The notes beneath the pieces are model-generated. The model did no database searches, was not told where the DNA came from, and saw nothing but the letters and a program-made list of their open reading frames with translations. The position numbers and the translations under genes are program-made. A DNA stretch of 63,987 bases, filler included, from Dirinaria sp. TL-2023a (taxonomy: Eukaryota): assembly GCA_051941275.1 (NCBI GenBank). It is 5 parts of 5 records of this genome, joined end to end, with 100 filler letters (N's around TTAATTAATTAA, not from the genome) between each part and the next. Parts side by side here need not be neighbours in the genome. Positions count along the whole stretch, not along the records: positions 51,313 to 63,987 come from JAVEBF010000748.1; 4 more parts are not named here. One strand, written 5' to 3'. Of the stretch, positions 25,683 to 63,987 are shown one piece after another; positions within the stretch are counted from its first letter, which is position 1; each line of letters begins with the position of its first letter.

Positions 25683-27560
25683 TCTTCGAGTCGGAATCCA
25701 GACCTGACGCATGGAAAAATTGCTGTGGGTTGCTAGATATGGGATGATAGTATTAGATTCCGCGTTGAAATAGATGTAAATAGTTAAATACTTATGAACG
25801 ACGAAAAAGATGATTGACAACGAACTTTTACCGCTTGCTCAAAAATTTTGCCTTCTTGTCTGATTTCAGGGGAGTCGGGGGAGTGGCGACTTGTAAAAGA
25901 ACTATAATCGGTCTAAAAGAAAAAGAAACATACACCAACGTATTTAAAAAGCGTTGAAAACTTGAGATTCCTGATCTCAATCGAACGAAATCTGAGTTTA
26001 ATCGAACTCGGTTTTACGAGCGCGGACGTTCCAACTTCTGATTCCTCGACTTTGCGTCGTCTTTTGAAATTTGCGTGAGTTTACATACTGCTTGATTCAA
26101 CTTGAAAGTATACTGAACGCGACTGGGTCCCGGGAGATTCTGTCATTTCATTCGTTTCTTGAGTAAAACTCCGACTTTGTTGATTAAATAGTCGAAGTCT
26201 TTTTCGTGACCTTCTCGATTCGGAATTTTCTCAAAATCGTAGATAACTGTCTTACATATGTCTCAATTGCGAGATTGAAAGATTCGACGCTCTTGAAGCT
26301 CTTAGAGTTCGGAAATATGCTGAATTTTGTGTGGTTTCCAGCTTCGTCTCTTCAAAACAGTCTCTGCAGCTTTCTCAAATAGTTCGCTTGCTTCTTCCCG
26401 TTCACGGCCCCCACGCTGATTGCTAGAGAGAAAAGCTGATTTTTGCGAAAAGTAACGATAGAATTTTCGCTTTCTCATTTGCACGGGCTCTCAACGTTTT
26501 CGAAGTCTTTCGAATTCTTCTCATTGTCTCTACGAGCAAAATTCTTCTCAAAACTTAATTCACGTCCTCTCTCGTAAAAAAAAAAAAGTCATATACTCAC
26601 AGATACTGTTCTGAAAAATATCTGAGCATTCTAAGATATTAACAAAATTTTAGTGCTATAATGAGTCAATCTTGGATTCGAAGCTGTCTAAAGTATTCAA
26701 ATTCGACTCAACCAATTTCTTTGATTTAGAACTCTTCTTTGCTTTGCTTTTCTTGATCTTTTTGAATTGATCAACGTTTTTACTTGTCCATAGACTGAAC
26801 GTGCTACGTCGAGAATAGAAGAGTGGATATAAAGTATAATCTAATGTAATATAAAAAAAATAAAAAATAAAAAGTAAGGCGGACCCGAAACCTTTTACAC
26901 AAATTAGATCTTTATCTCTCAATGTATAAATGGTGTGAAAACTCTTTGAAATTCGTGTTCTGAAGCACTTCATGCTGCAAGCATCAAAGCCGAGGAGTAC
27001 CAAGTCAAGCTTGACCAGCCGTTTAGAGGAGCTCGAAGACCTGCCCCAAGGGACTTACAGGAGCAGCGCTAGTCTTTGTCCGTCATTATCTCTGGCCAAG
27101 CCATGGATGTTGAAAGTAGAAAGATACTGCTTAAAAAGTGGGGCTTAGTGAACATAAGATGTGAATTTCAGAATCATCATCAAAAATCTTGATACGCACC
27201 CAAACGCGTGTTTTTTTCGCTTGTCTAAGTCTTTCTCACTCGATCTGCACTGATTTCTCAAGTTCTCGTGTCTTCTGTGTTCTTAAAAGCTGTATTGATC
27301 TTTCATACTTTGCGAATTCAGCTTCGGAGAGCTGATGTCTTCGAGTAATTTTCGTTGTTACAAGGCGCGACGGTGGTTTAGATTTCTCTTTGCTGATTGA
27401 TGGGTTTTTGTAGACTTCGTGCTTTTTGGAAGCTTTCTGGTTTTTAAATTCCTTTCAGATAAAGTTGTAACAGTTTAGAAGAAGCCTTGGGAAAGTACAG
27501 AGTTGGGATGTGGGTGAAGTCGAAGAAGCACTTTGAGATAAATCTGATGATATGTATTGT
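25683..27560. repeat. AT-rich hypermutated relic (repeat or multicopy gene; family not recognised)
   Basis: Located at a contig edge. Raised AT, reduced CC/GG with CpG retained, and broken Lys/Ser/Phe-rich minus-strand ORFs (26302-26484, 26656-27003). Confidence 0.5.
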
Positions 27561-31507: not shown

Positions 31508-33666
31508 TCAGGATCCTGTTGTAGAGGTTTTTCCGTGCAGCTTGGCAATCAGTTTGGCCATGGCGGCCTTGACTTCTTCCATCATGTGCTTCCATTTACC
31601 CCACATGGAATCAGCCTTGTCTTGGTCTTGGTTATCAATTGGAGAAGTGCCATTGGCGGAGACGGAAATGTTCGGCGTCTTGTGCAGCTCAATGGTCTCC
31701 GTCTCGACCTCTACTGTAGCTGCAGCTTCAGCTTCAGATGGAAGATCCTCTGGCACGTTCTCTGGGGGAAATGGCCCATCCGAATGTAGCCCAATCGTCT
31801 TCAGAGGCAGGCGTAAGGTGCCGTTGTTTGGTTTTGGCTCAATGCCTAAGGAGTCGCAGACGATGTTGTAGACTTCAATGTTCTCTAGTGCGAAATTGAT
31901 ATCGATACAATCAGCAATCAGACAATCGCGTCTTGCTTGAAGGAAAAACTTACGGAAGGGGCGGAGTCTACTGTTCGGCTGATGACGGAAAGCCGGGCCC
32001 CGTGCTACGAATATAGCTCGCATGAGTGGATGCTCATGATCATAGCCATGGAGGCCTTTGGGATGGTAAATCGACCCTTTTGCCTTCGCTTTTTTCACGT
32101 CGAAGTCCTCCTTGTGCACAATGGCCCACCCAGTCTTAGGAATGACCCATAGCGGAGCAATGCGCTCATTCTTCGAGAAATGATAACGCTCCGGCATGTC
32201 CTCATCCCGAAGATAGACTTCGAAATTGGTGTTCGTCAGGGATTCTACCTTCAGTCGATCGTAAAGAGGACGGAGGTCTTTGGGGTCCTTTGGTCGAAGG
32301 CCATATAATGGCCACCCATCGATATGCTCGACCAAGTCCAGGTCAATGAGGTCGTCAAGCTGTATTAAACGATCGACAGATGTTGTTGCCATGCCGTGAT
32401 CGCTGACCACAACAATGTTGACTACGTCTGAGAGGTTTCGCTGGTTGATACCCATGAAGAGCTGGTGCAGCATGTCATCCGTCCTGGCAATCGTCTCTCG
32501 GATCTCGGTACTGTTTGGTCCGTACGTATGCCCATCGGCATCTACGACGGGGACATAGGCGGCAATGAGTTGTGGTCGGGATCTCTCGCCTCCTTCGCCA
32601 ACTTCCTCGGCACCGGGCATATCTAGAAACTCGAGGATACGGTCGACTTTTCGTGATAAAATTTCGGATCCATTGAATTTGTCTACGAATGTAGGCTCTA
32701 GCTGGATGTGCGCTTCACTACCAGGCCACATGTGGATAGCGGTTTTCAAATCTTGCTTTTCTGCAGTCACCCATAGCGGCTCACCACCGCTCCACCACTT
32801 CGGTTGCATGCTCCTGGCTGGGTCCGTGTAGTAGAACTCCTCCTGTATATCGGCATCCCAGAAACTGTTTCCGACAACGCCGTGGCTTTCTGGATACAGG
32901 CCAGTGACCATCGTGTAATGATTTGGGAATGTGACGCTTGGAAAGCTTGGTAGCATGTACCTCGGCGAAACACCATGGGCAATGAAGGAGTGCAGGGTAG
33001 GCGTAAGATTGCGCTGCAGAAAGTCCGCACGAAAGCCATCAAGCGAAATCAGGATTGTCGTAGGTGCAAATGTAGTACTACCGTTCGATAAGCTAGGAAA
33101 GATCAACCTTGTGTGAGGTATAGTAGAGGTTCTGTACGAGCCGAACGCAAGGAGTAGGAATAATACGGAGATGGCCACGACGATCGCGAGGTGCAAAATT
33201 CGGCGTCGGTACTGGAGACAAAAGATCAGCAGAAATACCTTCCCTTTGGAGGGACGCAGACCTTCAAATTTGACTGTTGCTTCAACATGTTCTGATCTAA
33301 TGAGCTCGGCGAACAGGGCCAACCCATATCATCTCTCACTTCCATGTCTTCCATCTCATACAATAGATGTCCTTCCTGATACTTTGCCCTTTTCATTTTT
33401 GGCTTTTGACCTTTGCGTTGCCGTCTCCGCGCTCCCCTAGGCTCCCGCCCATCTTTGGGGACATCTGTGTTGCTATGCGATTCGCTATGATCTCCAAACG
33501 ATTCGGTTGCCAGTAACCTTTCTCGCTGCTCTTCTTCCAGCAGGATCGCACGATCGCTCTCCGTTGGAGTTCCTGTATTTGAGGAGCTTGCATCAGAGTC
33601 GTAGTATTGGTTGTGACTCAAGCCGTATTTGGCATTGGTAGAACTGGCGTCCACGCCGTGAGCCAT
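31508..33666 (-). CDS. NPP1: Type I phosphodiesterase/nucleotide pyrophosphatase (ENPP family, type II membrane protein)
   Basis: ILISLDGFRADF, catalytic Thr in PSVTFPNHYTMVTGLYPESHGVV, VDADGH, VSDHGM, GLHGYD. One TM helix after the N-terminal exon. Introns ~33213-33261 and 31885-31953. Confidence 0.93.
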
Positions 33667-51312: not shown

Positions 51313-52345
51313 GACTAATAGAGTTCTAAAATACTTAGCGCACACAAAGATCTATGTCATTGTCTTTGACGATCAGACAAGCAACATCGACACAATCTTT
51401 CTAGAGTCATCAGACGTCTCATTCGCCGATGATGTTGACACACGTCAAAACTCAAACGAGTATTGCTTCAAACTCTTTGATGACATGATCGACTGAAAAA
51501 CATTCAAACAGAAAACGATTATCACTAGCTCTATCGAAACAGAGCTGCTTGTCATGTCAATGTCAGAAAGCACTAAAACGTGATGAGACCGATTCTTTGA
51601 AACAATACAAATGAACATGAGAGAGTTTATTTATATACAATGCGATAACCGTCAAACGATAAAGATCTTCATCAAATCGAAGACACATATGATTACAAAA
51701 CTGCGTCATGTTGACATACATCGTCACTGACTGCGTCAAGAAATGCAAAAAGACAACATCAACATCGAATGAATTTCAACAACGAAAATCCTAGCGAACG
51801 ATCTCACAAAGACGTTGTCATCGCAACGGCATCAAAAATTTTTAAAGCTCATCGAATTACGAGTCATACAATCTGAGACACCTTCTAAAACAATAAAAGA
51901 GAAGAATAACAACATCGAAGACCATGTCAACAAGGGCATAAACAAAGATGCAAATGGCTCTGTGAATAAGAAGGCATAGGAGCACTCACTATGGTGATAT
52001 GCTCCTAAAGGGGTGTGTAAAATCGGGACCGAGTGGATCGATTCGCCACCAAATGTGAAAAGTTGACGAAAACGATTAGTCTTCGCAAGATGACAGTCCT
52101 CGAAAACGTTAGTGCTCAGATAATGAATAATAGATATAGGCAGTGACTCGGATAGTATACATGACAGTCCGCAGAATGGCAGTCCGCGGATAGGTAAACC
52201 GCAGGGCTCCGGGTAATAGTAATATCGGGTATATAGTAACCCACAATTCCTCGCTTTTCTTATAGAAGGGAGGCAATTAATCACACACATACAAACTGCC
52301 AAACATAGATACAATTGACCTCACAAACACCTCCTAAATCTGACA
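51313..52345 (+). mobile_element. Ty1/copia LTR retrotransposon 3' relic (RT end/RNase H, PPT, 3' LTR), heavily mutated
   Basis: Translation SDVSFADDVDTRQNS...ID*KTFKQKTIITSSIETELL...IQCDNRQTI...KLRHVDIHRH*LRQE...IE*ISTTKILANDLTKTL matches copia RNase H motifs (D.S.AD, S.EAE, CDN, KHID, ADGLTK). Confidence 0.88.
52016..52345 (+). repeat. Putative 3' LTR (~330 bp)
   Basis: Follows the purine tract AAAGGGGTG. Starts TGTAAAAT and ends ATCTGACA (TG...CA, imperfect inverted ends). Internal TATA-like CTTATAGAAGGG at ~52258. Confidence 0.6.
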
Positions 52346-52585
52346 TCTTGTTTCATAGCGGCCTTAAGCTGACCGCGCCGCTGGGCTTCCCGCCGATTGC
52401 ATGATGCCTTTCGGATCTCAATTGTCTGGATTCTTCGCTAGAATTTTCTCAATCTGAAAAATCCTCTCATAACGACTCGTGGAAGAAAAGACGATGACAC
52501 GATGAGCGAGGAATGAATGTGAAAAGCTACGCCCGCCTACGCAAAGCCTCATGTTGTATATTCGCCACTGACAAGACCTTCCCTA

Positions 52586-55500
52586 CTATTGAAATTGTTC
52601 TCTGGCAAGCAAATCACCATGTAGTATCCTACCAAAGTGAGACTTTTGGAAACTCTGCCCTTTCCTCCTCAGCGACATCAGCATTCTCAGAAACCCGACT
52701 GGACTGATTAAAAATGGACATTCTTTCTCCATGATTGCGTCAAACTGTAACCTGCTTTTTGGACTGACAAATCCGTCGCACGCGACCTGAATTTGCTCGC
52801 ACGGTGGACGAAAACACAGTCCCAAGAATCGACAGACTGAAAGATATTCTTCATAGCTTTTTAGATAGAGCTGACCGGCAAAAAGGTTGAGCTGCATGGT
52901 GAATGGGGGTGGAGGTGGAATATGCGGTACTGCAGTGATTGCGCAAAATGATAGATCCTCTAATGTACGCACAGACATACTGACTCGAGGTGAGTAGACA
53001 TGCAGGGTGACCTTCTTGTGCTGACGTATGGATGGCAATAATTCTTGAGCTTCATATGGGCTCAGCACCACATAGTCGACAGTGTTGTCATTCTTCCCGA
53101 TCGCAACCCAGTGGACAGGCCTGAGAAAGGAGTCCAAACGCTGGTTTTCTGAGGCGTGTACCGTCCGGGCAAAGTCGGCCGTGACCAGCAAATGGACCGG
53201 CCACATTTCCACTTCAAGATATTCAATGGCGCTTGTGTTGCGGAAAAGCTCGAAGGCACGCTGAAAGGCGTCCGAATTACGGTCAAGAATTCCCTGGTGA
53301 ACAAAGCGCTTCACGTCTCGATGGATTTTGTGAATGTATGGTATAAGTACCGGTGGGGCTTCAACTTGTCGCTCTTGCTCGTTCTCTGGTGATAGCTCGC
53401 GCTCCTGTTCCTCTTGGAGCGTTGCGCTACTGAACGATGCCAACTCGAAGTCTCGACACTTAGCCCGAATGGCGTCCAATTGCGTCTCACGTTCCAATAG
53501 TGATTCCTTCCCTACGTCATGAAACAGGACTTTTTCTTCTGGTGGTCCTCCAAATCCGTATCGATCCTGGAGAGTTTGTGCTTCACTTTCGAGAAATGAT
53601 TTTGCAATCTCCAAAGCGGCACCCTTGCTTCTACCATCGGAAAACCTTGACCAGGCTATATGACGATGTTGGTACCTTATTCCTTGTGTCGCCCACAATG
53701 GAATGCATCTTTTCATGTTGATGCAGGTTTCCGAAATGCACCATTGTAATACATCAGCTACTTCGATGGTATCGCGCTCGGTTTTCTGGCTCCGCCGGAG
53801 AATTTTGCGTTCAATTTCTGTTGGTCCGCAGAACATGACTGATTGGCCTTTCCCTAATTTTCGCATTCGCATGCATGCTGTCTAGGTTAGCGGTGGGGGA
53901 AGAGTTGATAAGATCAAGGCATACCTTGGACAAGTCGATCCTTGGTGAGGTCAGGCCCCAGCGTTACAGCGGCCCGGTACTTCGTCGGTAGCTTCAAGTC
54001 CGTCCCTCGTGTGTGAGCCTCATCGAGGTACACCAGACACTGGTCCATCTGCTTCGCAAAAGGCGAAATCATTAGCGATTCCGAGATGCCGTCACGGCTC
54101 AAAACCGACAGGTCGTTGCGATCATCGAAAAACACGACCGCCTGAGCTTCTGATGCCGGAACATGCAAGAGCCATATACGTGCGACTTCCTCGTTCTTCC
54201 ACTCCAAAACTTGAGCCCCCACATCCAGGATGACACGCACGGGTGGCTCTGATTCAATGACTATTCGCAGCAATGATTCTGCATCCAGGCGTTGTCTTCC
54301 ACATTCCTGTTTGGCATGCTTAAAAGTATTTTCCGGCTGGAGTAGACAACCGAGCACTGCGGCGTTGGTATGAAGCTGCGCTGGGAGATCGCACTGATCT
54401 ATGGATAATGGTAAGATATACCTGCTGTCATTTGTTCCACTGAAACCTGTTGTGGGGTGAACTTTCGCTCGTGCGATATCCCAGCCTGAGGAGGATAGCT
54501 TGTGTGGAAACTCCTTCATCTCCTTTGGAAAGATAACACGAGACATGTAATAATCGATTGCGCCTTTGGCGGCCCGCAATGGAGGGAAAACTATCTGAGA
54601 ACACTGCGCAGGATCGTTCAGGTTGATACTAGTTAGTTGCCGAAATGCAGACGGTAGCTCAGGCGCGTCTTGAACCCAGCGTTCATATTCTTCCTGGGCA
54701 TGATCAGACTGGAACAGCTTTTCGAAGGCGATATATAACTGTTTATCCGAAAGGCCTCCATAGTAGTAACTTAGACAAGTAAGTACTATGGCGGTATCCG
54801 GGTGGCTGAATTCAGCCCGCGTTGCTGGATTGTCTTTCGCACGATAAGGTACAGCAAGCATGGTGCGCGAGAGGTCAAGTCCGTAATTGACGCGCCATCG
54901 CTTCTGCTGCAGAGCAAATGCCAGGACCCCACCAGCAATCAGGCCTCTAAGAAGAAGCAAGCTTCGCCTCATCGATTCAACAGCTAAAACGTAATTCTGC
55001 AACGGCTTGGTTTCAATTTCGTTCATGTCGACATCAGTGAGGAACCTGAACAGGATAGCTCGGATGTGTTGGGGAAGATTCCATACGGGCACTCCCGGCA
55101 GACCTGCTTCACACACTTCTCTCGCCACCATCTCCAGAAGTTCATAAGAGGCGCAAGGCTGTAGAATCCGTATGCGAGGAAAGCTTCCAGGGTGCACAGG
55201 TCCTAACTCCAAACCTTCCGGGAAAATATCAAGGACTTGCGATGCAAAGCGGCTCATAAGTCCCAAAATATGCTCAATGATATTCCATCGCTCCGGGCCG
55301 AACTCAATTGCGCGCTGCATGCCCATAGTGTAAATAAGCTCGAAGCGGACACTCAGAATCTCGTCACTTTCGTCAAGAATATCTCGCGAATTGTCCTCCA
55401 GCCAATGTTGTGTCTCGATTAAGATGTTGCCCAGCTCCGGCTCGCCGGACAGAAGTCGTTCAACACCCATCAGCTCAAACGAGAGGAGGTGTTCCGGCTG

Positions 55501-58500
55501 GACGAGAAGTACCCCACTAGTGCGCATACATTCTTCACACATGGTTCGAATTTGTTGCGCCTTGTGCATGTCCAACCTGACCGACCGTGAGATGGGCATA
55601 TGGAAGATACGTCTACCCAGCATGCCGCCGAGCCTTTTCACTAGCACATGAAACATTTGGTTCGACAGAGGTTTGAGGACGACGACCCGCACAAGCTTCT
55701 TTCCATCTGCCAGAGCCGCGGCCACAGCAGGAACGATGACGGATGACTTTCCCTCGCCCATGTTCAGCTGTAAGATTGAGTTCGCACTAGACGACGGTGA
55801 AATCATTTCCCGAGCGATTTGAGCTTGTACCTGCCGGATCAAGATATTATTTTCGATTTCGAGAAGCAGCCAATCCGGATATTCTATGGGGTCCCATCCC
55901 TGACGGCCTGGGTTGATGAGTTCGCTCAGTATTTCTTCGCTGTTTCCAATACAGGCAAGAAGGCGCTCGGCCCGTTGCAGGGTCGATATGGCCACTCCGT
56001 ACTCGATCAAAGATCTTTTCCAGTCATCGCGCAACGCGGCTCTTTTACCATCTGCTAGCAGTTGAAGAAGCGAGGTAGTCGATACGCGAGGCCACATACA
56101 TGCACTACACGCCAGCCGTCGCGTGATCAACGTCTCTGTCTGGAGGCAACTATAAATTGTCTGGTACACGTCACTGACGTATTCCCTACATAGCGTCAGA
56201 TGCTCCTCTAAAAGGGGCTTGAGTGCCTTGAATGATCCCCTAAATTGCAATTCTGCATTGTCGTGAAGTGAGTCGAAGCTCTGGGACAAGTCAATCGCGT
56301 ATCGTAGCTCATGGCTGCCTGAGGAATTTGAGAAGAGACGCAATAGAAGTGACTTGAGTTCACCATGGCTTGCCCGATCCCCATCTTGCTCACCGAACCA
56401 GCAATCAAAATTTTCAAGGGGAGCCGGAGGAAGGCTGGGAGCAGACCTTCCCATGATGTCATTGAATTCGACATGACTCTGCTTTAGACGATAATGGTAG
56501 TCGGGCTGCTGATAGGAATATTTCTGCAGCTTCTGGTCTCCGGTATTTAAATTATCCAGTATGTCTTGCACACGGCTAATGATCTTTTTAAACTTGGCAT
56601 TACGATTCCAGCTTTGATACCAGCTCCGTGCGTCATCTGTGGCCTCGTTTACAGAAATGTACGTGTTGAAACGATTGCCTACGGGATCACAAACGTCCGC
56701 TCCGGGCCACTGGTAGATGAGAGCATCCACAAAATGGCCGACGCAATCTTCCACCGCCGCTTGGTGCTCGTCCCTTCGGCGCTCGTCAGCATCTGCGAAT
56801 GTTTCATTAGACAATTGCGGCAGGTTGGATTCTGGACACGAATAAAAGGGTCGGCTCCTATGTTTGGCCACGTTCACCAATCTCTCCTTACTTGGTTGAA
56901 AGCCATGCGATAGGTGAAACGACTCATAGTCCGGCAGTTCTATTGCTCGAAGTTCAGGGACCGTTGCGAAAGCTAGAAGCGTCTGGATCAGCTCGCCTTT
57001 TGCGTGCTGCGAGTAAGTCAAAGTGGACAGAAAAACCATGATTCTGTATTTATCTCTTTGGACCACACTATGAGATAAAGTGGCGTGCAGCGCACACCAA
57101 TGTGTTGGGAAAATCTCGGCGGGGGGTTCCAGCCATTTCGTATCATAGCCCAGAGGAAAGGAATCTCTGGGTTTCCAACCGCGGAGCGGCTCCCCCCAAG
57201 ACTCGATCTCATGGAGCAGCTGTGGACAGCCTCTCAAGTCAGCGGACCAGCAATCGATCAGCTTTGCAATTCGATAAACCTGGGACTCCCGTACGCTATT
57301 CGAGATATAGTCTCGGGCGACATATTCGATATCATGATCTGTCGTATGATTCTCTGCCCCGAATTCATGAACCCGATAAGCAGAATCCCGGATGGCCGCC
57401 CTCTCAAGTAAGTGCTGGTCGCCGCAGATTCCTGCATCTGGTAATTCTACGGGTTTATCATGAAATAGACTGGATGTTGCTGCTTGGTCGAAAATTGACC
57501 GCACAGATGTGGCAAAAGAATTATGCTGTGATAGTGGGGACAGAGTCTCCCACTCCACCTCTTGCATCACTCGTCGGTGCCGCGGATAATACTGACGATG
57601 TGGGGTCAGTCGTGCAAGAAGTACTAGCAGATCGATTTCCACTCTACCGAGGCTGTGAAAGGAACGGACGGAGGGCGATGCTAGTATCGAAAGGGCTTCC
57701 TCGGTGCCAGTCCGACCGGTGAGCTCATCGGTCAAACAGTGTGCAGTCACGGCGTGAAGATAACATTTGAACAGCTTGCTCCTGAGGCTGCCGTTGTCAA
57801 CAAGTCGCCCGATTTGACAGTCAATGTGATAAAGATGATAGGAAAGGTGTTGTGTTGACGCCTCAATATGTACACGTACGTGGTGGCCGCCTGGCTTGAA
57901 CAGAACGTTTCCATGAGGGATAATGACGCTGCGTGACGAATCATTAGTTCCCCGAAGGACGAGCTTGTTGACTAGTCCGGTCAGTGTGCCAAATGATTGG
58001 TTTGCATCCACGGCCATGCCACGGAACTGCCTCGATTCAAGCTTCGTAGCCCCATTTCTCAAGAGGAAATCAAGCTTTAATCGTGGTAAATGCACTTCCA
58101 ACGCTTCCGTCTCGCAATTGAATGTTACGTGTATATGGATCGCATTTTCTAACGGACGCAGGACTGTCGAAACCGCCTTCGCTGTCGGCGAATGAAGGTC
58201 AATTAATTTCGAGGAACCACAAAGCAATAAATTTTCGCCTCGGCTACCGGACTGCATCTGCCAGCTCTGTGATGTCGAAGTCCAAGCATTTAATAACGGT
58301 CGCCATTCAATAAAACCCGTGTCAAGGTCTAGCCAATGCACGAAATCGTTAACGAAGGCCTCTGGAAAGTCACCGTCCAGAGCATGCAATGGGAGCAGTT
58401 CGTAGACCTTTCCTTCCTTTTTGGCCCGGATAATGAGTTCCGAGCCGTGCATACCAAAGAATAGCTGACATAAATTTGGTTAGCAATAAAAGAATCTTCG

Positions 58501-61500
58501 TCATCACGTAGTTCCGTTCACAAAAAGGCAGAAGAGGAAAGGAAGACAATATTTACCTGGTGGCCAAAGAACTCATTCCGAGCTTCAAAAACCATCCCAT
58601 TCATCGTGGAAGGGACAACGTCGAGAACTTTCTGTTTCAAGCATTGATTAGTTAGCTCCCTTCTCGATGCTTCTACAGATGGAGCATTTTACCTCGCCAA
58701 ATAGTCGACGGAAAGTCGGATGCGATTCATAGGACTGGGGAAGCCTCGTAAGTGGCGATCCGTTAACGAGCAAACTTCCATTCAGTAAATTGTAGTGGAC
58801 CAGCATGGACGAATGACCATTTCCACCTGATGTTTCCGTCACGAGCCATCGCTCGCTAGGTTTTTTTAACGCGGTCCATGGGGATCCCGGCACATATCCT
58901 ATCCAGAGCCGGTTTATGGTGCTATCGAGACTATTGTGGACGTTAAGAATCCGCTTGCGCAGTAATGGTTCGAGAATGTATGATAGCCGCTGATACCGGC
59001 GTAGTAGGGTTTTGATCGTTGCAGGCAGATTGTTTGTTTCCACTGGACACCGATCGTGCACGATAATTGAGCATTCAATGACGATTGCAGTACCCTCGTC
59101 TGATCGGAGTATACCAGGAAGATGGTGCGGATCGACATCAAACGTCCCATGACAAGTCAAGGCCATTTCAAGCGTCTGTGCATTCAGGATTTTTAGCTCC
59201 TCCTCCTTCAGTGTTCCGTGCAACTTTTGCCCCAATTCGCGGGTCCAGCGCAATGAGATTGCTCGTGCTCGTTGCAGAAAACGGCAGCAACCCGCGCGCA
59301 CCACGTCGCAGGTAGAGAGGGAGAGCAGTCGAGTCGCAAGAGCGATAAAAGTACGTGCTGCCGTGGCACCCTGCCAATTACCTTCGATCGTTCCGACTGC
59401 ATCGTCCAAGGCGGACAACAATGACTTCCCAAAGTCCACCTCTTCAAGGTCGGCGTGAGATTCTCGACACACTTCTCCTTTACTGAGCGGGCCAACCTGC
59501 CACGCAGCATGGGTCAGCAAAGCGTGTGTTTCGTAGCAACGGAAATTGAGAACACGAGTAGTGAGTTCGCGAGCGATGTTCCGCCATTGCAGTCGATGAC
59601 CCGAACGCAAAGTTCCAAAGGCGTAAAATTCATGCATTGTCAGCGTCTCAGAGCACTCAGCTTGACTTGCAATTACCTCGTTGGAGGTGTGGATTGTGTT
59701 ATTTACGGCGTACTGCAGTCCCCTATACGGTCCTGCTGGGAGCTTCAATATGCACTTTTCATGCACATCGTAGTAACCGAGGAGCTCTTCAGTCCATCTC
59801 AGTTTCTCCGAATCGTAAAGAGCGTAGTCCATGCCATTGTTGACGCATACATTGGTCTCATTGGCCTGAGAGACTTTTTGATGTGAGTAGTGCGACACGA
59901 CAAAGGGCTTGGTTGTCGAGGTGAGCTGGAGTCGTGCTGCCTGCGATTTCACGAACTTTTGTAACCCAGTGTAGCTGCAGAGAGAGTATATCTTCTGCTG
60001 CTTGCCTTTGCCTTGGTATGGAGATTGACCGCCAGGTTCGACAGACAACATGTCCACAATGATGCTATATGTGGTGTCCCGCCATTTGGATACGATAGCC
60101 GGCACGTCGAGCTCGAACACCACCGCCTTCACCTGCAAGCCTCTCTCCGGAAGTGGCCACTCATGAACGTTGATTGTGAGCCCTTTGGCCTTTGACTTCA
60201 GCTGACATTTCTGACATGATTGGCTGTGCTTAGACTCTTGTTGACGCATTCGCCACCAAGAAATGTATTGGCAACTCATTCCATCCGACTGTTCCATCAA
60301 CTCTTTGTACTGTTGACGTTTCTCTGCCAGCTCAGATATTTTTCGAGACCGTTCATTCGTCGCTTCTGCCTCGATCTTTCGTTGCAGTTCCTGATGATGT
60401 GGCGATTGCAGGAAGTAGCGCACGGCAAAGCTCTTCGTTGCGTCGACAGACCGAAAGATGGATGGGAATCCTGGTATAGCTGCTGCTCTTCTTGTTGCAA
60501 GATGCTGCTCAACGCGGTATAACCGCTCCATCTGTGCCTTTTTGGGCAACAGCAATGGCTCGAATAACGATGGCGGGAACCCAGGGTCATACTCGTGTAG
60601 TAAAGGGTAATGGTGTAGCGCGCACTTGTCAAGCGCAACCCACAGTTCCATTACTGTGAGGAGCATCAAAGATATGTCTTCCGGCATACCTGTATAAGCC
60701 AAAGACGCTGCCGATGCGAAAGTTTCAATGAGTCTTGCGAGGGCCTCGCAGGCGCCTTTACCTTCTATGTTTGCTTGAAGCCAGTCGTCGAGCGAGTGCT
60801 GCACCCAGAGCTCCAAATCTGCCAGAGACAGCCAGGGTTGGCCTTCGTCCTCCGTCCTCAAAAGACTTAGGTCTGGCAAGCTTGAGCTGCCCTGCAAGAT
60901 GCGGCGATCGCAACTTGACGTAAAATGGTGGCAGGTTGAGGGCGAAGCCGGCCGCGCTGGCACCCTTGCAAGGTACGGCCTCAACCTTGAAAGTTTAAGT
61001 TCAGTATCCTTGAGAAAGAACAGCTGCGACGGGCACCAGTCCTGTTGCATCCCTAGGGGATCTGGATGCTTCTCTACGGACTTCCATCTGCGAAGCAATT
61101 CTTGCTGAACAGCCCCCATTGTCTTCTCCACATACTGCAAACATGCGGCTCCATTCGCCGCCCCAATTTTCAGCGCACGACGGCTAATCTTTGCCGTCAT
61201 AAGAAAGAGCGTATCGCTTGGCAAAGAAGCTTTCAAAGCACGTTCCAAGACATGGGCCATGAAGAAGAGCATGAATGACTTGTACCTCACATGTGGCTCC
61301 TGCTCATCGCTATGCATAAGTCCCGTTTGCAACGCAACGCGAAGCAAGAGCCACAAAGGGGAACGTCGCCACGGTTCAAGTGCATCTTTCCACAGGACGT
61401 CCTCACGAGTGTGTTTGTAGATGCGAGCAACATCGAGGGGCTGCCCGACAGCTCGTAAAATGCCGGTAAGCATCTCTGTGACGAACCTTGGGTGCACCGT

Positions 61501-62132
61501 GTCTCTGCTTTCCACGACCTTCGAATGCGCCTTCTTTGCAATTGGCAATACTTCTTGAGGTGTCTCTGCGTCGAGTTTTACGAGTAACTCTGTTAGTGGC
61601 TCGAGAAAGCTGGCGTTGGTGACTCGGTCTTGGCCGATGACTACGCCTGGACCAGGAAAGCATCGTCGCAGCCGACCCTTGCTCACGATAACGGCCTCGG
61701 CGGTTGGGGAGATTTCGAAAGACTCGAAGGACAATTGCTCTGAAGATTTCCGGACGATAAGTCCCGCGTTCTGGCTGCGGATGTGCAACGTGAGGGTATC
61801 TGAATCAACGCAAAAGATGTTATAACACTTGCTTTGTCACCAGAGAATGCTTTACTCCTACCTCCACTGATCATTTTTCTCAGCGTTGTTTGCAACTTTT
61901 CGACTGCCAGTCCTCCAACATGATCCCGTAGCTCGAGCATGTTGCTGACCATCTTGATGCAGGCGATCCATTCCGGACGCTCCTTCTCCGGAATTTGAGC
62001 TTGAAAAGATCTCAATGCCGCCAGGACTTGCCCTATCAAAGCAGCGCTCTTCGTATCATCGCTGTCATCTTTCTGTGGTAATTTGGGTGGGAAGAAGACA
62101 TGGTTAATAACATAATTCAAATCTTCCCGCAT
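52586..62132 (-). CDS. Giant DUF6606/DUF3638/DUF3645 P-loop (SF2-like) protein, ~3094 aa
   Basis: Five exons (62132-61862, 61799-58693, 58631-58557, 58464-53925, 53877-52586) total 9285 nt, in frame, with GT-AG introns. N-terminal YVINHVFFPPKLPQ (DUF6606); QLNMGEGKSSVI and ILDESDEIL (DUF3638); RWRVNYGL...AVPYRAKDNP...EFSHPD (DUF3645). Confidence 0.9.
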
Positions 62133-63184
62133 CTTGATGGGTTACTAGTCCTTGCTGTGAGGAACAAATGATTGATGATGGGTCGTATAGCGGTGGGGAA
62201 TACTTATTTGGAGCCGCGAAGATCTACTCGTCCACCTGCAGCTGCAGCAATCCAATTCTTGCCACCTGCAGATAGCCTAAAGCGTCACGAAGTAGGTTTT
62301 AGTTTCTCAATAATCTTTGTCCAACGCTGCGTTAGTGTGTCTCCACATGGTGTGATCTGTGAAGCAGCGTCTCCCTAGGATTCTCGACCGGTTTCGAACG
62401 ACATTCTCACTTGATATGAGTTTACCCTTTGAGTTTCTCTGTATTCTTATTGGGGGGCTGATATGGGATTTGCTGCATTCGTTTTTCATTCCTGCATTGG
62501 GGCGCTTTGCCACTGGATCAAGGTGGTCTGGGCAAGGCGGTCAGTCTCGAGCGGAATCTTCGACACATCAAGTCATCTGCAAACAATAATGACCGATGAC
62601 ACCCTTAAAAACCTCCTTCAGGTTTTGCAGCAAGGACAGGGTAGAGTTCTCAGTACGCCAGCTATCACAGCTGATGGTGAACGAAAGATTGCTTCTAAAT
62701 TCGTGTGCAAAGCGTATCATTTCGAAGATAACAGAACATGGCTTGGACCACTGTGCCATAGGCGGAAGTAATGCATGGGCGACATGTATAAAATGCTTTC
62801 CACAATAAGCTAGGTGCTTTCGGGGAACCAGACAAACATCCTCATTTCTGTGATGGATCGGCTATGCATAAATTTCGCGCTTTAGAAGTTGGGATGGCTC
62901 TAATATGTCTCCACAACCTCGGTCCCAAGCTTTTCTCGACCAATCGGAGCTTAACTGAGCTGTACTTCTCTTTACATTTCGATACTTAGGGGCATCTACT
63001 CTGTGGAATTGTCATTGCTCAGGATTCCGTTGACTAAGAAATCCATCTGGTGTGTTCGTGACTAGCCAAGAAATGCCGAGTTCGCTGTGCATAACCCTTC
63101 CATCGCAGCAAGCTGCAACGTGCTTCCGTCAGATGTTATGATAGGCTACATAAGATGCTGCCTTGGGAGCAAGAAATCTCTAAG

Positions 63185-63987
63185 AGTACTCTGCTAATGT
63201 AGCTCGAGGATCATCAAGCTCATCCAACCGGCTGCGGCAAGCGCTTGATTTGACTTCAATCTCATCAATCAAGCTGAGTAGCTTCGCAGCGATTTGCTCA
63301 AATAGGATCTTGCTGAGTCTGCTGCGTAATTTGTTAACGTCTAGAAGCGACCGAGACATGTCTTCTCATATCCCTTGAGAAAAGAATTCCTTTTTCTTAA
63401 CATCGCGATCCGTCAATGACCACTCTCCTGTTTCGGAGTTCATGTTTTTCAATACGTGCCACTCAAGACGGAACTCCACATTCTGATTTCCTGCGAGAGA
63501 CACGTACATGACTTCACTCTCGAAGCCTGCAAGCAAAGTATCAGATTTCGTAATGACACTCAGCGTTCGATTACTCTTCTTATTCGCTGCACGAGCGAGC
63601 TTCAACACGATTTGATTTGCATAATCGTTCTTCGCCGAGATCATCGTCAGAATGATACTTCTCGATTTCTTCATGTAGAATGAAACGACGTCTTGTACGA
63701 GCTCGACATCGAAAGCAGACTGCTGTTTCGTTTCAGAATGAATGAGTTCAGGTAAATCTACAATTGTCAAGTGAGATCGATCAGAATTCGAGATCTCAAC
63801 TCGAAGAAGATCTTTCGAGAAAGCTTTGTCATGAACTGAGATTCTCATAGTCGCTTTTGCTTTCTCAATCAGATCTGAGAGCTCTTCGAAGCTTTTTAGC
63901 TGTTCGTGAAAGCTGCTAAGAGTAAATCGTTCGATTTCAGTGCGAGCTTGATGCGAGACAATCGACACGTTTACACTCATTTGCGAC
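63185..63987 (-). pseudogene. Mx-like dynamin-family GTPase, inactivated by transitions; 5' part outside the window
   Basis: FSKDLLRVEISNSDRSHLTIVDLPELIH (consensus GPDRPHLTIVDLPGLIH), SAKNDYANQIV, RTLSVITKSD (consensus TLGVITKPD), LEWHVLKN. TGA replaces Trp at 63366-63368. Homology continues to ~63185 and then breaks off. Confidence 0.88.

Follow-up and report, generated by a model that had tools for sequence, protein, structure and literature searches.

Apparent two-strand C-to-T hypermutation of CpC sites in a copia relic and a dynamin gene fragment of the lichen-forming fungus Dirinaria, a probable variant of RIP

In a 63,987-base stretch of DNA from the lichen-forming ascomycete Dirinaria sp. 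TL-2023a (GenBank assembly GCA_051941275.1), hereafter the window, at least two unrelated sequences of the genome, a relic of a Ty1/copia retrotransposon and a fragment of a dynamin-family GTPase gene, appear from comparison with their homologues to have undergone a derived C-to-T hypermutation on both strands. The base affected is the 5' C of CpC, i.e. a cytosine whose 3' neighbour is another cytosine, and the same signature is echoed in proteins from other records. This is probably a genome-defence process akin to repeat-induced point mutation (RIP), with a CpC rule in place of the CpA rule. The features concerned are as follows.

51314..51930, plus strand: hypermutated C-terminus (RNase H region) of a Ty1/copia polyprotein, its 5' side cut by the contig end and linker
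51494..51772, plus strand: span of in-frame stops of the type Trp to TGA (51494-96, 51581-83, 51584-86, 51728-30 and 51770-72)
51931..51979, plus strand: 3' tail of the copia frame, unmutated, to a TAG stop (CC/GG are back from 51922/51934)
51980..52345, plus strand: flank with normal CC/GG, a possible untranslated region and a putative 3' long terminal repeat (LTR) at 52012-52345 that starts with TGT and ends with ACA (weak)
63189..63986, minus strand: hypermutated, truncated dynamin-family GTPase gene fragment (residues ~85-350 of ~640) that runs off the contig end
63366..63368, minus strand: in-frame TGA at an invariant Trp (Trp in 40/40 homologues, frame open on both sides)

Over the whole window CC and GG both have an observed/expected ratio (O/E) of 0.94, and values below 0.4 in 300-bp windows are found at three places only: the copia tract, 26451-26850 and 63401-63950. 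In 51314-51900, CC occurs five times (O/E 0.19) and GG once (O/E 0.07), while TC (n=49, O/E 1.61) and GA (n=52, O/E 1.47) are both enriched. None of CG (n=29, O/E 1.50), CA (n=61, 1.26) and TG (n=31, 1.40) is depleted, and TA is present 28 times (O/E 0.50). A sequence-only reading of this DNA had noticed that CC/GG are depleted while CA/TG and CG are plentiful, which is true and extends past 51900, to 51930. The 617 nt of 51314-51930 retain six CC and one GG, seven in all against 42.3 ± 5.4 expected from 10,000 mononucleotide shuffles, the minimum of which was 23.

The relic has every appearance of a Ty1/copia retrotransposon, whose polyprotein has RVT_2 followed by an RNase H region with an ADxLTK end. 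All 48 database matches carry RVT_2 (PF07727), and the best of them are intact polyproteins of 1,450-1,560 aa, 55-63% identical to the relic, which aligns to their last ~200 residues (E 1e-64). Residues 1324-1516 of one of these (P0001) align to 51314-51925 with 58% identity (tblastn). The relic's own translation gave no Pfam match. Its five in-frame stops are all TGA and never TAG, as the sequence-only reading had it, and all five stand at columns where the consensus of 10 intact homologues is Trp (≥0.8). The same reading was right that two GG>GA changes have altered the ADGLTK motif, which reads ANDLTK (Asp>Asn and Gly>Asp).

The 3' boundary of the mutated tract lies between ~51,880 and 51,935. 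Conservation among intact copia members falls there from 0.82-0.97, first to 0.53 and then to 0.27, and the tract ends within about 40 nt of this collapse of family conservation, which would fit a process that recognizes resemblance to other copies. Beyond it, 52012-52345 has a CC O/E of 1.00 and a GG O/E of 1.13. This segment may be the 3' LTR of the element, as weakly suggested by its TGT...ACA ends; the window contains no second LTR to pair with it.

The second tract, 63189-63986, occupies the opposite end of the contig that begins with the copia relic and has CC/GG O/E of 0.33 and 0.21. Pfam Dynamin_N (PF00350) is recognized in it at 7e-16, and its identity to PF00350- and PF01031-bearing proteins from many Lecanoromycetes is ~80%. 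Homology to these proteins ends at 63189 and, judging from the partial span and the one interrupting stop, this is a fragment of a dynamin-family GTPase gene. The family is nearly invariant across Lecanoromycetes, and ancestral residues can therefore be read with confidence.

Mutation spectrum and sequence context

Both tracts were translated with stops as X and aligned to homologues, and the minimal codon change was derived at each column that is at least 80% conserved. The reference was the last 300 residues of P0001-P0010 for copia (10 of the 48 matches, the remainder being more distant or mutated) and P0049-P0088 for dynamin (40 of 120, among the matches listed). Two of the dynamin references are mutated themselves, which the 80% consensus rule tolerates, and five ambiguous positions (one dynamin, four copia) were dropped. 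Context rates were computed over every C or G whose transition alters the amino acid, with strands pooled.

In copia, 46 of 147 conserved columns deviate and 43 changes were derived (24 G>A, 13 C>T and 6 other); the corresponding values for dynamin are 46 of 239 and 48 (29 G>A, 14 C>T and 5 other). Over both tracts 80/91 changes are C>T or G>A, with 4 reverse transitions and 7 transversions, in agreement with the derived C>T/G>A transitions postulated from sequence alone. The base 3' of C is decisive: 63/87 sites are mutated at CpC, 13/88 at CpT, 3/110 at CpA and 0/87 at CpG. The rule holds in each tract, with 27/31 CpC sites mutated versus 9/102 in other contexts in copia (Fisher p=2e-16), and 36/56 versus 7/183 in dynamin (Fisher p=2e-21), a CpC conversion of 64-87% across the two. 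In successive thirds of the dynamin fragment toward the truncation point, 13/17, 14/20 and 9/19 CpC sites are converted.

Within CC the base hit is the 5' C, and on both strands, as had been claimed. Pro>Ser changes (n=8) outnumber Pro>Leu (n=1, CCC>CTC), Trp codons became TGA in 6/6 cases across both tracts, and Gly>Asp/Glu is common, while in the seven cases of Gly>Ser/Arg the preceding codon ends in G (six) or A (one). C>T and G>A at CpC are equally frequent in copia (9/11 vs 18/20, p=0.60) and in dynamin (10/14 vs 26/42, p=0.75). The 5' neighbour of CpC is of little weight (A 16/23, C 16/17, G 15/20, T 16/27). By the second base downstream of the mutated C, the values are 27/32 for A, 16/20 for G, 18/25 for T and 2/10 for C, the last meaning that it is the middle C of CCC runs that is converted. 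In these runs the middle C is mutated in 16/17 cases and the first C in 2/10, a skew that exceeds what a random order of conversions would give.

One part of the original proposal did not survive. CCG had been thought to be spared, but CpC before G is mutated in 16/20 cases, much as before A (27/32) or T (18/25), and Pro CCG>TCG is present in both relics. The observation behind that idea, that the CC/GG remaining in 51314-51900 are mostly CCG/CGG (4/6), is accurate and is a small-number effect.

Sites that are largely synonymous tell the same story. Third-position pyrimidines in the relics are T in 36/43 cases before C and in 77/178 before other bases (p=1e-6), compared to 296/568 and 852/1873, respectively, in a control of five intact open reading frames (ORFs) of the window. 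GC content is lowered from about 49% to 37-43% in the tracts. CpG O/E is 1.4-1.5 within both tracts versus 0.87 elsewhere, because C and G are lost at CpC sites and CpG is untouched, and this might serve as an additional marker for such tracts.

Related sequences and the rest of the window

Three public runs share words with 51313-61312 and were compared at 80% likeness. In one of them (X3), a 13.4-kb contig is collinear with 52466-63987, with 220 differences over 11.5 kb (~98% identical), and 52346-52468 (123 bases) match an earlier part of the same contig; other dynamin contigs are present in this run as well. Pieces from a second run (X2) are 90-95% like the window and cover the dynamin tract in part. 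None of the three runs covers 51313-52158 at this likeness, and this was not used as evidence. The X3 contig diverges upstream of 52346, directly after the ACA end of the putative LTR, and near 52467 it has ~330 bases that the window lacks; at the 52346 site this relative may be without the copia insertion.

At 63277, 63284, 63298, 63302 and 63308, all within the dynamin fragment and among the differing places listed, the window has A/T while X3 and X2 have G/C. These five sites are the very events P>L, E>K, G>E, L>F and V>I that had been derived from proteins, which validates the protein-based approach and shows that part of the conversions happened after the ~98% identical relative had split off. 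The comparison comprises 40 listed of 2,188 differing places, seven of them within 63221-63308, and since the listed places favour sites where X2 and X3 agree, no rates are derivable from it.

For database proteins, the frequency of CpC-position changes in Gly/Pro codons was set against that of changes at obligate CpA sites (His/Cys/Met), with the following results.

P0012, copia: CpC position 31/40, CpA 1/23 (p<0.05)
P0014, copia: CpC position 16/34, CpA 1/22 (p<0.05)
P0013, copia: CpC position 11/20, CpA 2/14 (p=0.03)
P0011, copia: CpC position 8/20, CpA 3/14 (p=0.29, not significant)
P0049, dynamin: CpC position 11/41, CpA 0/20 (p<0.05)
P0050, dynamin: CpC position 15/37, CpA 0/22 (p<0.05)
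Intact relatives, copia and dynamin: CpC position 0-1/97 and 0/45

Six proteins, four copia and two dynamin, thus deviate in the same way (p<0.05 in five), and all come from other source records (JGI, ENA). They show Gly>Asp/Glu and Pro>Ser at columns that are otherwise invariant, their frame is kept open, and they are stored publicly as ordinary predicted proteins. Six mutated columns are common to P0049, P0050 and the window fragment, and 19 are private to the window; P0050 is full-length and hence a different copy from the window fragment. A metagenome scan with the copia alignment, in which 80 of 227 confirmed loci were kept, all with ≤52% protein identity, yielded none of the relic's own family among those kept and served as a composition control only; the lowest 600-bp CC/GG O/E among them is 0.55, compared to 0.2 in the copia tract.

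Within the window, the 10.7 kb of intact genes that separate the two tracts have a CC/GG O/E of 0.86-0.89. Two long intact ORFs, 53914-58452 and 58648-61788 (minus strand), lie there head to tail, with DUF3638/DUF3645 (and a weak DEAD-helicase match) and DUF6606 domains, and may be one large gene. The remaining features are these.

25900..27350, no strand assigned: third patch, less strongly CC/GG-poor, where a contig begins
12752-12851, 25583-25682, 38400-38499 and 51213-51312: N-run spacers

The third patch has O/E of 0.59 for CC, 0.60 for GG, 1.43 for TC, 1.32 for GA and 1.27 for CG, and its (CC+GG)/(TC+GA) is 0.27 versus 0.74-0.87 elsewhere. A six-frame Pfam search of 25683-27400 gave no convincing family (at E≤1 only RMI1_N_C, E 0.24, 11.6 bits for a cut-off of 23), and no informative repeat structure was found in the same interval. 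Possibly the patch is a relic, older or non-coding, of the same process. Between 44800 and 45600, CC/GG fall mildly (O/E 0.25-0.79 in 200-bp windows) and TC/GA are raised, a pattern too weak to call.

The window consists of five contigs of ~12.7 kb, with spacers N44-TTAATTAATTAA-N44 between them. These are whole contigs of a lichen-forming Lecanoromycete; the ORF 31508-33328 (minus strand) matches a protein from a metagenome-assembled Dirinaria genome with 100% identity, and the next named relative is Physcia stellaris, at 69%. Features at spacer junctions are cut by contig ends and not by biology, including the start of the copia observation, which coincides with the opening base of the last contig. 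The assembly is metagenome-derived, and its CC/GG-poor tracts are located at contig ends: three of the ten ends in the window are CC/GG-poor and all three patches are at ends, as would be expected if assemblies break in repeats. Within the window itself, tblastn and blastn found no second copy of any of the three CC/GG-poor sequences, and Pfam scans found no RID/DIM-2 gene.

Origin of the hypermutated tracts

How might such tracts arise? In a RIP-like process, the target would be duplicated DNA, here the copia element and an additional, truncated copy of a gene from the multi-copy dynamin family. A cytosine on either strand would be changed to thymine where the next 3' base is C, with a preference CpC >> CpT > CpA > CpG, and repeated rounds would bring CpC sites near saturation. 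The expected outcome would be TGG>TGA stops, Gly>Asp/Glu and Pro>Ser changes, a fall in GC and a rise in TpC/GpA, with CpG and CpA untouched. The likeliest agent would be a RID- or DIM-2-type cytosine-methyltransferase-like enzyme acting before meiosis, since enzymes of this kind sense which base lies 3' of their target C. Several points weigh against this account. The ancestral states come from protein consensus and not from the DNA of progenitor copies, and duplication of either sequence in the genome is presumed, as are a signature common to all repeat families and its absence from single-copy pseudogenes. The sample amounts to two tracts and six proteins, all possibly from one lineage. The flank 51980-52345 is unmutated and, if it includes an LTR, a repeat-wide process should have reached it. 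Finally, canonical CpA-type, very AT-rich RIP has been described in the Lecanoromycetes Cladonia (PMC12542154) and Xanthoria (bioRxiv 10.1101/2025.11.25.690456) and in Endocarpon of the Eurotiomycetes (PMC3897900), and a different rule in a related fungus needs explaining.

Neither the spectrum and context nor the strand symmetry and locality would be expected to differ if a CpC-preferring methyltransferase, either DIM-2-like or like that of methylation induced premeiotically (MIP), marked repeats in which 5-methylcytosines then slowly deaminated spontaneously, and the CpG signatures of some fungi have been explained in this way (PMC4352252). We nevertheless consider this unlikely, since 64-87% of CpC sites are converted next to a flank that differs by only ~2% from X3, and at least five conversions postdate the split, which is fast for spontaneous decay; moreover, non-CpG methylation with a strict CpC rule was not found in the literature searched. 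Editing of retrotransposon cDNA by an APOBEC-like single-strand DNA cytidine deaminase, followed by integration of the edited copy, would suit the fact that the main tract is a retroelement in which mutation ends shortly before a putative polypurine tract and LTR, a stop that resembles the gradient shown by retroviral editing. However, cDNA editing gives plus-strand G>A only, whereas both strands of the copia tract are equally affected (9/11 vs 18/20), and APOBEC-type enzymes read the 5' base, while the context in the tracts is set by the base 3' of C. Together with the same signature in a gene fragment that is not a retroelement, and with five conversions in that fragment that are absent from the collinear X3 contig and thus arose in place, this makes cDNA editing highly improbable.

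Even less credence can be given to the scenarios that dispense with a mutator altogether. As the tracts are at contig ends of a metagenome-derived assembly, an assembly artefact or damaged DNA in a metagenome-assembled genome comes to mind, but the dynamin tract is collinear in the independent run X3 (and partly in X2), the same signature is found in proteins from other source records, and damage would neither be limited to two gene-sized tracts nor obey a CpC rule on both strands; the chances of such an artefact seem very slim. It is scarcely conceivable that there was no hypermutation and that a CC/GG-poor composition is ancestral or the product of pseudogene drift under an AT-biased spectrum. 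Both sequences are indeed non-functional, and TC/GA are mildly favoured window-wide (O/E 1.13-1.15), but at the columns concerned Gly, Pro and Trp are normal in intact family members, and the 80 metagenome copia loci never fall below 0.55. Drift does not yield 72% versus 0-3% according to the neighbouring base, and reverse transitions make up just 4/91 changes. Dipyrimidine damage of the ultraviolet type was also considered and rejected, the changes being limited to two tracts, 64-87% saturated, beside genes ~98% identical to those of a relative.

If the RIP-like account is correct, a lineage of lichen-forming ascomycetes may run a defence whose rule is the inverse of that of Neurospora and which escapes TpA- and GC-based detectors, so that surveys under-count it; we see about as much reason to accept this wider proposition as to doubt it. 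The defence would have been active recently, because the ~98% identical relative keeps unmutated bases at several sites, and behind an inverse rule there would have to be a RID/DIM-2-type enzyme that has been retargeted, or else an unrelated cytosine deaminase of double-strand DNA. RIP is recognized in genomes almost wholly by loss of CpA, gain of TpA or very low GC, and under a CpC rule some fungi scored as having weak or no RIP may possess an efficient defence unseen by the indices. An enzyme in which the base-reading part has changed would represent a natural experiment on RIP specificity, and hypermutated copies with open frames would be annotated as ordinary proteins, as in the six entries found here. 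The CpC claim is testable on existing assemblies of lichen fungi by (CpC+GpG)/(TpC+GpA) and RIPCAL-type alignments.

Comparison with known systems

Standard RIP indices are blind to this signature, as the sequence-only reading had predicted. TpA/ApT is 0.48 in copia and 0.43 in dynamin, and (CpA+TpG)/(ApC+GpT) is 1.23 and 1.40, respectively, whereas RIP is called above 0.89 for the former and below 1.03 for the latter (PMC3897900). The two tracts are instead singled out by the RIPCAL index (CpC+GpG)/(TpC+GpA), which is 0.065 in copia and 0.13 in dynamin versus 0.74-0.87 elsewhere. Both this index and the class CpC>TpC / GpG>GpA were already defined by Hane and Oliver (2008), for whom CpC is one of four bookkeeping classes, and the available part of that paper presents no organism with CpC dominance (PMC2621366). 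Full-text literature searches, whose scope did not extend to supplements or to Clutterbuck 2011, the principal survey of how contexts vary, turned up neither a case of RIP dominated by CpC nor a study in which RIP in Lecanoromycetes was analysed from alignments.

That the dinucleotide rule varies among fungi and tracks the Dnmt1-family genes present is established by Amselem et al. (2015), with species-specific CpT and CpG signatures (Magnaporthe, Botrytis, Sclerotinia and Tuber), CpA being the only other signature listed (PMC4352252). CpT is second-ranked in our tracts (13/88), a point of likeness, but these are CpC-dominated, with CpG at 0/87, while the word 'CpC' occurs 0 times in the text of that paper. 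In Pucciniomycotina (Microbotryum), transposons are hypermutated at TpCpG (Horns et al., 2012; PMC3318451), another context-specific C>T process of transposon copies that does not involve CpA and was deduced from sequence alone. However, those fungi are basidiomycetes and the target is a CpG preceded by T, whereas in our tracts CpG is neither mutated (0/87) nor depleted, as it would be under TpCpG hypermutation or decay of methylated CpG, and the 5' neighbour is nearly irrelevant. The RIP regions of Cladonia have a GC content of 10-20%, compared to 37-43% in the tracts (PMC12542154), and, according to a 2025 survey covering 1,239 fungal species, a preference for CpA is common to RIP-like defences (PMC12543289).

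The tracts resemble the products of APOBEC3G in that CC dinucleotides are targeted and Trp codons turned into stops. Yet this enzyme deaminates the 3' C of CC (GG>AG, TGG>TAG), on the minus strand only, while the tracts show GG>GA and TGG>TGA (6/6) on both strands, and in a fragment that is not a retroelement too.

Neurospora-type RIP acts on duplicated sequences of about 0.4-1 kb or more that are >80% identical, in the context order CpA>CpT>CpG>CpC, CpC being the least favoured; it depends on RID and/or DIM-2 and takes place before meiosis. The tracts depart from it in their target, which is CpC while CpA is mutated at 3/110 sites, and in that no TpA is produced (O/E 0.5). The likeness to RIP in Neurospora crassa and other Pezizomycotina is that changes are nearly exclusively C:G>T:A, affect both strands, are dense enough to create stops, and fall only in a relic of a transposon and in an additional gene fragment, leaving adjoining genes untouched. 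In Neurospora RIP, the base at +1, 3' of C, is the main determinant of specificity, outer neighbours being minor (bioRxiv 10.1101/344036), and the base 3' of C likewise chiefly sets specificity in the Dirinaria tracts.

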